Below are positions 14,067 through 15,843 of a stretch of 64,000 bases of DNA, piece by piece; within the stretch, counting starts at the first letter, position 1; each line of letters opens with the position of its first letter. Source of the DNA: a virus (Duplodnaviria; Heunggongvirae; Uroviricota; Caudoviricetes); the IMG/VR virus record IMGVR_UViG_3300010163_000008, positions 1 through 64,000 of that record; one strand, given 5' to 3'. Made by a program: the position numbers and the translations under genes. Below the pieces are notes generated by a model that was not told the DNA's origin, made no database searches, and saw only the letters and a list, made by a program, of their open reading frames with translations.

Positions 14067-14324
14067 ATGTTTGATTTACTTCTATTTCCCATGAGCTTTT
14101 GTATTGTACTTGCGTTTTATAAGTACATAGAATGGCAAACCTGTGTTCAAAGAGAAGTATTGCCTGATAAAAACTCTGATGCTAGTGCAAACATCGTAAA
14201 ACTTACTGTCACCAATAACAATTATGATTCACTAAGTGATGCGCTTGATGAACTAAATCGGGGTGAAGCTCAAATTATTTTAGGTGAACCTTTACATGTC
14301 AACATGAGAGACTATATGCAATAA
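14067..14324 (+). CDS. hypothetical protein
   Basis: ORF. Confidence 0.2.
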   Translation: MFDLLLFPMSFCIVLAFYKYIEWQTCVQREVLPDKNSDASANIVKLTVTNNNYDSLSDALDELNRGEAQIILGEPLHVNMRDYMQ

Positions 14325-14345: not shown

Positions 14346-15524
14346 GTGATTCATTTAGGTGACATAACAAAAATAAAAGGTGATGCCATTCCTGTTGTAG
14401 ATTGCATAATAAATGGCTCACCTTGTCAAACATTTTCAATAGCTGGCTTGCGTACAGGATTAAATGGTGAAAGTGGGCTATTTTTAGAAGCAGTTAGAGT
14501 TATAAAGGAGATGAGAGAGTGTGACAAAGCAACTGGAAGGGCAAACGGATTTATTCGACCAAGATTCATGGTGTGGGAAAACCCAACAGGGGTCTTTTCA
14601 TGTCACAAAGGAGAAGATTTCAGAACCGTCCTTGAAGAAACAGCAAAAATTGCAGACCCAAATGCCGTTATTCCTCGACCTCCGAAAAACAAATGGACAA
14701 ACGCAGGATGTGTCATGGGAGATGGGTGGAGTATTGCTTGGAGAGTATTCGATGCACAGTTTTGGGGAGTCCCCCAGCGTCGCCGTAGAATCGCACTTGT
14801 CGCAGATTTTGGAGGACAATGTGCCCCAGAAATACTATTTGAGCGCAAAAGCAGTTGCGGGAATATTACGCAGAGCGGAGAAACGCAACAAGCCATTACC
14901 AGAAATACTAAAGCAAGCATTAATCAATCAGTCGAAAACGTAAAGCCATCATTCTGTATTGCTGGTAATATTATAGGCAGAGGGGATAAGGCGGGTGGCA
15001 ATGGTTACGGCTTTCAAGAAGATATATCATATACACTAACGGCTACAGACCATCATGCAGTTTATTGTTATGATGCAAGAGGTAATGGTAATGGTGATAT
15101 ATCATCTACAATAACTGGCGACCATGAAAATAGAATTACTGATTATACTACAGTTGTATGTATGCCATATAATTCATCCGTAAGACGATTAACACCATTA
15201 GAATGTGAAAGATTACAAGGATATCCTGACCAATACACTGATATTGACAGTTGGACAGATAATAGAGGCAGAGTACATAAATGTAGTGATACGGCACGTT
15301 ATAAAGCGTTGGGTAATTCAATAGCGTTGCCGTCATGGACTTGGTTACTTAGTCGTTTATGTAAATACTTAGGTGATAAACCTACAATGGGCAGTTTATT
15401 TGATGGCATAGGTGGCTTCCCATTGATATGGGAACATATTAATGGACAAGGGTCTTGTTTATGGGCTTCTGAAATCGACTCATTTTGTATAGCTGTAACC
15501 AAAAAGCATTTTAAGACAGAATAA
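14346..15524 (+). CDS. DNA (cytosine-5)-methyltransferase, circularly permuted (motifs IV-X first, motifs I-II at C-terminus)
   Basis: GDITKIKGDAIPVVDCIINGSPCQTFSIAG (motif IV), WENPTGV (VI), QRRRRIALVA (VIII), RRLTPLECERLQGYPD (IX), ALGNSIALP (X), then C-terminal SLFDGIGGF (I) and ASEIDSFC...KHF (II); in-frame stop 24 nt upstream of start. Confidence 0.8.
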   Translation: MIHLGDITKIKGDAIPVVDCIINGSPCQTFSIAGLRTGLNGESGLFLEAVRVIKEMRECDKATGRANGFIRPRFMVWENPTGVFSCHKGEDFRTVLEETAKIADPNAVIPRPPKNKWTNAGCVMGDGWSIAWRVFDAQFWGVPQRRRRIALVADFGGQCAPEILFERKSSCGNITQSGETQQAITRNTKASINQSVENVKPSFCIAGNIIGRGDKAGGNGYGFQEDISYTLTATDHHAVYCYDARGNGNGDISSTITGDHENRITDYTTVVCMPYNSSVRRLTPLECERLQGYPDQYTDIDSWTDNRGRVHKCSDTARYKALGNSIALPSWTWLLSRLCKYLGDKPTMGSLFDGIGGFPLIWEHINGQGSCLWASEIDSFCIAVTKKHFKTE

Positions 15525-15551: not shown

Positions 15552-15592
15552 TTGACAAGCTCTTTCATCTGTGATATAATGATATCACAATG
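15552..15592 (+). promoter_or_regulatory. sigma-A type promoter with palindromic operator over -10
   Basis: ttgaca 15552-15557, 17 nt, tataat 15575-15580; tgtgatataatgatatcaca perfect 8-bp inverted arms. Confidence 0.55.
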
Positions 15593-15606: not shown

Positions 15607-15843
15607 ATGAAGCACAAAAGAATCGAACTTACCTATACAGATGGATTCAAAAATGGATATGAACAAGCGATAAAAGATTTTAACACACCGAAGTTTCCAA
15701 TCATGGAAAGATATGATAATTCAAAGTGCCCTCGATGTGGAAGATATTTTGACGAGTACGAAACAAACGAGGATAGTGTTATTTGGAGAGCAGTAACATT
15801 AGAACGTTGCCCATGGTGTGGACAGAAGTTAAAATGGAGGTAA
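15607..15843 (+). CDS. hypothetical zinc-ribbon protein
   Basis: CPRCG ... CPWCG. Confidence 0.3.
   Translation: MKHKRIELTYTDGFKNGYEQAIKDFNTPKFPIMERYDNSKCPRCGRYFDEYETNEDSVIWRAVTLERCPWCGQKLKWR

Follow-up and report, generated by a model that had tools for sequence, protein, structure and literature searches.

DNA methyltransferases are a textbook case of circular permutation. In a REBASE search for natural C5-cytosine enzymes carrying motif X ahead of motif I, Slaska-Kiss et al. (2018) obtained 27, all of them broken in the variable region, M.BssHII, M.Alw26I and M2.Eco31I being among them (PMC5944983). Of 21 permutants designed in the laboratory, those opened between motifs II and III showed the highest activity, cp62M.MpeI being comparable to the wild type (PMC5944983), and a 2025 classification of topologies lists the zeta-like class alone for permuted C5 enzymes. 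A different peculiarity is found in M.EcoHK31I, whose beta subunit is encoded wholly inside the alpha gene in another frame, is required for activity and carries motif IX (PMC2836561). The gene considered here lies at positions 14346-15524 of a 64,000-nucleotide stretch of phage DNA (positions 1 to 64,000 of IMG/VR record IMGVR_UViG_3300010163_000008, Caudoviricetes; "the window" in what follows). It almost certainly encodes a genuine permuted C5 methyltransferase, broken between motifs II and III, and it contains a conserved second open reading frame (ORF) nested in the +1 frame.

The methyltransferase ORF (392 aa, GTG start, TAA stop at 15522-15524; on the plus strand, like its motifs, the nested ORF, the upstream stop and the downstream promoter described below) presents its motifs in the order III-IV-VI-VIII-TRD-IX-X-I-II, where TRD stands for target-recognition domain. 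Motif III (GDIT, residues 5-8, 14358-14369) aligns to M.HhaI residues 59-62 and is the new N-terminus of the permuted enzyme. It is followed by motif IV (GSPCQTFS, residues 24-31, 14415-14438, read from the translation) with the catalytic Cys27, by motif VI (ENPTGV, residues 78-83, 14577-14594) and by motif VIII (QRRRRIALVA, residues 144-153, 14775-14804, placed by translation and M.HhaI alignment). P26 and C27 are invariant in alignment A2; E78 and N79 of motif VI are invariant too. A linker (residues 156-199, GGQCAPEILFERKSS..., 14811-14942), poorly conserved and predicted to be disordered, leads into the variable target-recognition region (residues 200-278, 14943-15179, from alignment A1). 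Then come motif IX (VRRLTPLECERLQGYPD, residues 279-295, 15180-15230, from alignment A1 and the M.HhaI alignment) and motif X (GNSIALP, residues 323-329, 15312-15332, from alignment A1). Only after these, behind a methionine (Met348, 15387-15389) that is invariant together with T347 in the 8-sequence alignment A1, do we find motif I (SLFDGIGGF, residues 350-358, 15393-15419), the loop binding S-adenosylmethionine, which aligns to M.HhaI from residue 16, and finally motif II (WASEID, residues 373-378, 15462-15479, from alignment A1 and the M.HhaI alignment). The hallmarks of a C5 methyltransferase are thus all present, namely the PC(Q) cysteine, the motif VI glutamate, the Q.R.R/Arg cluster, F.G.GG, the acidic residue of motif II, and motifs IX and X. 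Pfam PF00145 matches in three stretches of the enzyme (2.2e-35, 123 bits against a cut-off of 22) and TIGR00675 scores 129 bits against its curated cut-off of 100.65.

A phmmer comparison with M.HhaI pairs query residues 350-389 with HhaI 16-53 (motifs I-II), 5-57 with 59-112 (motifs III-IV), 129-215 with 146-237 and 276-310 with 268-291. These blocks are out of order, which places the break between motifs II and III and has the chain opening at motif III. An earlier note on this DNA had proposed exactly such a permutation from the letters alone. The order it gave (IV-VI-VIII-TRD-IX-X, then I-II) can be read motif by motif in the translation and recurs in the permuted blocks that the M.HhaI alignment makes explicit. 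The ORF does open with the residues that follow motif II in canonical enzymes (GDIT, residues 5-8), and the upstream in-frame stop is a TAA at 14322-14324, eight codons 5′ of the start, which also ends the preceding ORF (14067-14324).

With its start at motif III and its end after motif II, the window enzyme has Class B topology. The engineered II/III permutants share it, having their new N-terminus between motifs II and III and motifs I-II after X. They are, however, laboratory constructs made from CG-specific Mollicutes enzymes, whereas the window enzyme is natural, belongs to another subfamily and has many natural relatives. M.BssHII, M.Alw26I, M2.Eco31I, M.Esp3I and M2.BsaI (zeta class, "type H" or class F) are natural circular permutations of C5 enzymes as well, but in the M.BssHII group the break is in the variable region and motifs IX-X precede I-VIII, an order not found here, where IV-VIII come first and only I-II have moved. 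The earlier note had suggested the few known permuted enzymes for comparison; natural permutants do exist, but their topology differs from that of the window enzyme, which is a distinct natural class and not another M.BssHII. In plant DRM2, motif X passes directly into motif I, as it does here, and phmmer aligns query residues 294-361 across this junction. DRM2 is a eukaryotic enzyme broken between motifs V and VI, with VI-X preceding I-V, whereas the PCQ of motif IV stands at residue 26 of the window enzyme, ahead of motif VI. A search of open-access full text and preprints, which did not cover REBASE itself, returned no report of a natural II|III permutant, and the window enzyme apparently belongs to a large, undescribed topological class of C5 methyltransferases. 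Evolution has therefore also reached the cut site that engineers found best tolerated, and the natural family offers ready-made scaffolds for split or targeted methyltransferases.

The predicted structure is compatible with this reading. An AlphaFold2 model built with 50 permuted homologues has a predicted template modelling score (pTM) of 0.70 and a confident large domain, of which the C-terminal residues 348-388 (beta1-alphaA-beta2-alphaB) form a part, with a predicted local distance difference test score (pLDDT) of 81-91 and values above 80 for motif I. The best Foldseek matches in the PDB are M.HhaI (E 6.6e-10, probability 1.0), M.MpeI and Dcm-like enzymes. As modelled, then, the large domain is intact and M.HhaI-like, with the relocated motif I-II unit inside it; the beta1-alphaA-beta2 unit would pack beside motifs III and IV and rebuild a normal Rossmann-like domain. 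The catalytic loop (pLDDT ~30) and the small domain are poorly modelled, residues 167-279 (linker plus target-recognition region) having a pLDDT of ~25-35.

How widespread the arrangement is became clear from a search of 5.8 billion proteins, which gave thousands of relatives. In all of the best 120, in which the layout was scored, PCQ lies at about residue 26, and F.G.GG stands 40-50 residues before the C-terminal end; the top homologues begin M.HLGDITKI and finish ...WASEIEEFPIAVTK.F (also written ...AVTK.F). A viral sample picked by the enzyme alone (80 contigs retrieved, 56 genes scorable) shows the permuted layout in 43 of the 56 loci, and the same permutation is found in cultured isolates (Acutalibacter sp. 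1XD8-36 and 1XD8-33, Intestinibacillus massiliensis). Such a motif order is far beyond chance, and on these comparisons the permutation is the natural arrangement common to hundreds of gut-phage relatives. This conservation, the retention of all catalytic and cofactor motifs and the confident fold bear out the view that the break between II and III is genuine and that the gene is not truncated. A sigma-70 consensus promoter, TTGACA-17 nt-TG-TATAAT (15552-15580, 12/12 match), is located 28 nt 3′ of the stop codon; this perfect promoter marks the next transcription unit, and the methyltransferase ORF therefore truly ends at 15524. Downstream of the extended -10 promoter a strong ribosome-binding site precedes a 78-aa ORF (15607-15843), which opens the new transcription unit and has two CxxC pairs and weak zinc-ribbon matches.

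The target-recognition region of the window enzyme consists of two modules, CIAGNIIGRGDKAGGNGYGFQEDISYTLTATDHHAV and YDARGNGNGDISSTITGDHENRITDYT, which recur in other combinations among the homologues. The recurring modules, compared between window positions 14943-15179 and homologues P0003-P0120, read C[IL]QGN.IDR.D.AGCNGKGW..D.SYTLNT.DRHAV, YDARGNG.G....T.TGDH.NR.TDYT and IRSGCEGGGKGALVQ..S.TL...DQT, and their number and order vary, giving homologues of 339 to 664 aa. This modular variable region resembles that of the multispecific Bacillus-phage methyltransferases, and with its two modules the window enzyme may recognize more than one target.

The permuted gene most likely derives from a canonical relative like the methyltransferase of Streptococcus phage Javan105 or the Dmt methyltransferase of coliphage P1. 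In canonical relatives such as those of Javan105 and Ruminococcus phage NatCom_28274 the sequence reads ...VTTKR.P.(M/V)KH(L/Y)GD..., a junction that by sequence corresponds to the C-terminus of the window enzyme joined to its own N-terminus; written as ...VTKK.F/P.MKHLGD..., it coincides with the breakpoint of the permuted chain. Two tandem copies would have fused in frame, end to start, and both outer ends would then have been lost, with the old initiator methionine kept as Met348 and an internal Met or Val before HLGD becoming the new start. In the alignment Met348 falls where canonical relatives have their initiator region (M..LTLGSLFDG), and it has the look of a relic of such an end-to-start fusion. 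We infer the duplication-fusion origin from these junctions; as a point against it, ~165 loci and 390 proteins contained no intermediate of such a tandem duplication, with motif I at each end. In a neighbour-joining tree of the III-VIII core the permuted genes mostly group together; two canonical genes fall within the group and one permuted gene falls outside it, and a single origin cannot safely be claimed from this tree.

The nested ORF (14521-14943, 140 aa, GTG start, TAA stop at 14941-14943) lies wholly within the methyltransferase gene, where it overlaps motifs VI-VIII and the following linker. It is a conserved second coding frame that the earlier note overlooked. A Shine-Dalgarno-like AAGGAG (14505-14510), made of the Lys54-Glu55 codons of the conserved IKEMR motif, is found 10 nt 5′ of the nested GTG. 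At this Lys-Glu position AAGGAG occurs in 47 of 89 distinct loci, against ~16% expected from Lys/Glu codon usage elsewhere in the same genes, and a nested start codon follows 13-22 nt after the IKEMR Lys codon in 84 of the 89 (67 ATG, 18 GTG and 4 TTG among the distinct loci). Searched with tblastn, the nested ORF matched 151 phage records with E values down to 6e-25, and every match inspected was the +1 frame of a C5 methyltransferase gene, canonical or permuted. The carriers inspected were Javan105, NatCom_28274, the P1-like coliphage RCS47 (dmt), Vibrio phage CP-T1 (gp12), Mycobacterium phage Omega (gp127) and Caulobacter phage BL94; the frame was open in all relatives examined, of either motif order. 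Javan105, NatCom_28274, P1-like Dmt, CP-T1 gp12 and Omega gp127 represent the same subfamily, with the same nested +1 ORF over VI-VIII, but differ from the window gene in having motifs I-II at the N-terminus in the normal order. Protein and representative searches gave 939 and 4654 homologues. The nested ORF was never seen outside the methyltransferase genes of this one clade.

The evidence that this frame is under selection comes from several sides. When the enzyme sequence was held fixed and synonymous codons were resampled, an average of 4.3 stops (7.4 in the window gene) was predicted for the +1 frame, which is stop-free over the overlap in 86 of 86 loci; the median probability of its staying open under this reshuffling is 0.003. 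Nine further loci missed by the motif VIII pattern have the +1 frame open over 140-183 codons, and in the sample chosen by the enzyme alone its median open length is 147 codons, compared with 40 in the +2 frame. In a dereplicated set of 53 permuted genes, the diversity of synonymous codons at conserved residues drops from 0.63 and 0.61 on either side of the overlap to 0.40 within it (Mann-Whitney p=3.8e-9), and it falls to 0.09-0.12 over enzyme residues 165-188, where conservation is 0.87 and 0.76 in the nested frame as against 0.58 and 0.42 in that of the enzyme. Alignment scores of the alternative frame between the window and six distant phages are 7-15 SD (standard deviations) above a synonymous-shuffle null, and for Vibrio phage CP-T1 the alternative frame scores higher than the enzyme frame on the same DNA (169 versus 141). 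An open frame, suppressed synonymous change, a crossover of conservation and start signals would be hard to explain together unless the nested frame is translated, and we regard it as very probably coding and under purifying selection.

It should next be asked whether the product is free or joined to the enzyme. Just 2 of 118 loci have an X_XXY_YYZ slippery heptamer in the tail of the nested ORF, and neither the length nor the sequence of these tails is constant. The idea that ribosomes pass from the nested ORF into the enzyme frame further downstream by a programmed -1 frameshift was accordingly rejected, and since the -1 slippery site is missing, the window ORF should yield a free 140-aa protein. 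A single +1 shift uniting motif VIII and LSQILE..KYYLS in one chain is impossible, both being encoded by the same nucleotides.

In M.EcoHK31I, too, a second ORF is contained wholly in a C5 methyltransferase gene in another frame, a comparison that we make by description. The difference is that M.EcoHK31I beta supplies the motif IX lacking in alpha, while the window enzyme keeps its own VRRLTPLECERLQGYPD and no such motif is present in the nested product. Open-access full text and preprints gave nothing beyond M.EcoHK31I on an overlapping gene in phage C5 methyltransferases. The E. coli dcm-vsr pair is similar in that the gene of a cytosine methyltransferase overlaps one to which it is linked in function, but the annotated overlap is only 20 nt at the 3′ end and the nested ORF has no Vsr or other Pfam match. 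The nested ORF is thus a deeply conserved overlapping gene within a very well-studied enzyme family, and P1-like phage dmt in E. coli would be a tractable model for it.

Annotation has dealt with it badly. PHROGs family phrog_16143, labelled "DNA methyltransferase", consists of the nested ORFs themselves, and the RefSeq entry WP_243029725.1 is a nested ORF held as a hypothetical protein. In metagenome annotations, gene callers often split intact permuted genes into the nested ORF and a 3′ fragment (L003, 4001-5187; L005, 4001-5316), a systematic error for the clade. With the nested ORF missed or the enzyme gene broken in this way, many gut-phage methyltransferases are mis-annotated.

The two frames are complementary in their anatomy. 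The N-terminal ~80-88 residues of the nested product (MTKQLEGQTDLFDQDSW at the N-terminal end) are predicted to be disordered (pLDDT ~43) and lie over the structured motifs VI-VIII of the enzyme. The conserved C-terminal domain (residues 81-134, FGESPSVAVESHLSQILEDNVPQKYYLSAKAVAGILRRAEKRNKPLPEILKQAL, 14761-14922, with invariant residues in alignment A3) overlaps the low-confidence and poorly conserved linker, which is simply the enzyme-frame reading of the DNA encoding it. The ~50 C-terminal residues have the consensus ESP..ES.LSQILE...P.KYYLS.KAC.GILRRA.KRGK.LP..L..AL, and AlphaFold2 predicts the equivalent in protein P0333 as short helices with a pLDDT of 76-95. Homology of the nested product to a solved structure or a Pfam family was rejected, phrog_16143 being the only match.

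What the nested protein does can be approached through its relatives. In split forms (loci L027, L033, L049, L070 and L165; proteins P0333, P0366 and P0252) the enzyme frame stops soon after motif VIII and the nested ORF itself runs on into TRD-IX-X(-I-II) as one polypeptide. This fusion is suggestive of a methyltransferase-linked function. Of 19 disruptions located between motifs VIII and IX, 5 are split forms, above the expectation for the short junction zone alone; numbers are small and some loci are related, and the excess is only suggestive. They resemble M.AquI, an alpha/beta methyltransferase split within the variable region (PMC3404938), except that their ORFs overlap by ~140 codons; the window gene encodes a single chain. 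The fused protein of L027 shows weak collinear similarity to E. coli Dcm, beginning immediately behind motif VIII (BLASTP E 0.007), the TRD-IX-X block following with E 2e-6, and we take similarity to the post-motif-VIII segment of Dcm as a lead only and not as evidence. The AlphaFold2 model of P0333, which comprises the nested domain followed by TRD-IX-X-I-II, was dropped as support for the nested domain packing on the small domain: its overall pTM is 0.34 and only the C-terminal domain of the nested part is confident.

A second clue is QTDLF at nested residues 8-12 (14542-14556), which fits the bacterial sliding-clamp-binding consensus QL[S/D]LF in its looser form, QxxLF (PMC12309361). The strict pattern Q[LVIMAT][SD][LIM]F occurs at a fixed distance from a W.GK anchor in 110 of 220 homologues, with no occurrence in 59,209 residues of methyltransferases and one in the rest of the alternative-frame proteins; the version in phage Omega is QLDLF. 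The motif also sits in an exposed, disordered region, as judged from the low pLDDT of the N-terminal part. The phage encodes its own Pol III alpha, which makes a clamp-based replisome plausible. The cytosine methyltransferase DNMT1 is coupled to the PCNA clamp through a PIP box. It serves here as an analogy for the clamp idea only, the candidate motif of the window being a bacterial QxxLF on a separate nested product.

We therefore propose the following working model. Independent translation of the 140-aa protein would be driven by the Shine-Dalgarno sequence built from the Lys-Glu codons of IKEMR. The protein would be an accessory subunit whose folded, basic, helical C-terminal domain docks on the small domain of the enzyme, and in the window lineage the N-terminal QxxLF would tether the enzyme to the sliding clamp of the replisome. 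The parts of this model differ in standing. That the nested protein is an accessory methyltransferase subunit is a reasonable candidate explanation, held at somewhat less than even odds on the sequence comparisons, and that it binds the clamp through QxxLF is tentative and rather doubtful. Taken as a whole, a two-protein locus made of an active permuted enzyme and a nested accessory or clamp subunit is the account we moderately favour. Its widest extension is that the entire clade, with hosts among Firmicutes, Proteobacteria and Actinobacteria and including the P1-like Dmt, is dual-coding for a previously unrecognized nested subunit, whose folded domain would complete the small domain of the enzyme or dock on it and which in many lineages, that of the window included, would carry a clamp tether, the window being the first described natural II|III topology; we consider this speculative. 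If the product does act as a subunit or clamp adaptor, it would change the view of how orphan phage methyltransferases work and are regulated, and a clamp tether would be the bacterial-virus counterpart of DNMT1-PCNA coupling.

Several observations weigh against these functional proposals. QxxLF is absent from the P1-like, CP-T1 and BL94 versions, and among dereplicated nested homologues only about half have Phe at the last position of the motif. Split forms are also rare: 5 of the 121 scorable loci have one, beside 14 disruptions of other kinds in that interval, and some split forms may be decaying genes. Comparison of the nested product with the Dcm segment by hhalign was not significant (E 0.14). 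A Pfam search gave no match for the window ORF and chance-level values in 2 of 73 members (E 0.019 and 0.046), and the nested-product profile matched the PDB at chance level only (E 0.33).

The most serious competitor supposes that the +1 product has nothing to do with methylation and is a small DNA-binding regulator, an anti-defence factor or a host-takeover factor overprinted to save space. In its favour, phages often overprint genes, the folded domain is a small helical one of basic character (RRAEKRNK), no similarity to methyltransferase parts is detectable in PDB or Pfam, and a clamp-like motif could equally be aimed at host replication. We nevertheless think it unlikely, since an ORF with an independent job would not be expected to remain confined to the methyltransferase genes of one clade, to stay nested through the permutation and across phyla, and to be fused in frame to TRD-IX-X in some relatives; M.EcoHK31I, moreover, is a precedent for a nested methyltransferase subunit.

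Improbable, in our opinion, is that the +1 ORF is not separately expressed in single-chain genes and is retained, under intermittent selection, by lineages that switch between split and fused forms. The split forms listed above and many further database proteins do exist, and several of their junctions fall in slippage-prone G-rich runs such as GGGGGGG. The window junction, however, has no homopolymer, and the ORF is intact in essentially all fused genes of Firmicutes, Proteobacteria and Actinobacteria phages, where it also keeps its own start codon and Shine-Dalgarno sequence; stops end it consistently 13-46 residues past the domain.

Judging by its motifs, we consider the permuted protein probably catalytically active. 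Some features speak against this. Relative to the family consensus the enzyme is unusual in having ENP in place of ENV in motif VI, PCQTFS in place of PCQDLS and Asn23 in place of Gly, all at near-invariant positions, and its target-recognition region is poorly modelled (pLDDT ~30). Phage homologues of C5 methyltransferases with other chemistry are also reported, for example the carboxymethyltransferase CmoX (PMC12783734). That the protein is inactive alone, or puts another group on C5, has nonetheless little probability, given the catalytic Cys, the motif VI Glu, the motif VIII Arg cluster, F.G.GG and the acidic residue of motif II, a TIGR00675 score above cut-off and the full activity of engineered enzymes of the same topology. 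An active enzyme would methylate phage DNA, presumably to escape host restriction. A general look at the surroundings of the gene noticed no restriction enzyme nearby, and the methyltransferase therefore appears to be an orphan.

Finally, an error of sequencing or assembly, or a decayed gene, might be invoked, for instance a missed frameshift that had put the 5′ part of one methyltransferase gene behind the 3′ part of another; the earlier note had named an artificial fusion of two ORFs as its refutation. This reading might draw on the ORF coming from a single metagenome contig, with the exact protein found once (P0001, on a contig of 116,952 bp), but it is refuted in practice by the conserved family: 120 of 120 best homologues from many studies, together with the cultured isolates, have the identical order, start and end, every motif is intact, synonymous diversity of 0.61-0.63 outside the overlap with residues conserved indicates purifying selection, and a consensus promoter follows just after the stop codon.

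Disruptions of other kinds were seen among the relatives. In RCS47 (NC_042128.1, ~1105-2160) dmt carries an intein placed precisely within the PC|Q of the catalytic motif (GGTP-C...VVHN-CQAFS); the inserted sequence matches Pfam Hint_2, LAGLIDADG_3 and Intein_splicing. In Faecalibacterium phage FP_Toutatis (gp14/gp15, L010) and loci L144-L149, the reading frame shifts at a G-run (..IPRP.GGG..) lying between motifs VI and VII, so that the N-terminal part of the enzyme is continued by the nested C-terminal domain and motifs VII-VIII have no annotated product; this could be slippage, phase variation or a pseudogene. The methyltransferase is fragmented in cluster J mycobacteriophages, by an in-frame stop between gp127 and gp128 in Omega (L008) and by HNH endonuclease genes in Thibault (L172), and the nested-ORF segment is still recognizable in both.

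As to its context, the window is a phage genome of ~36% GC that encodes a primase-helicase, an NrdD-like reductase, tail-fibre proteins and a DnaE-type polymerase. The gene for this Pol III alpha is split into two plus-strand ORFs (25489-26937 and 27226-29367), exactly within PF07733 (profile positions 4-103 and 104-259). The 289-nt gap between them (26938-27225) is covered by a full-length match to the group I intron model RF00028 (26917-27216, 24.7 bits, E 4.8e-4, below the gathering score), and a self-splicing intron is likely. Between ~29400 and 30700 both coding strand and GC skew switch, large ORFs being on the plus strand up to 29367 and on the minus strand from 30745, and this region is the boundary between divergent modules of the phage genome.

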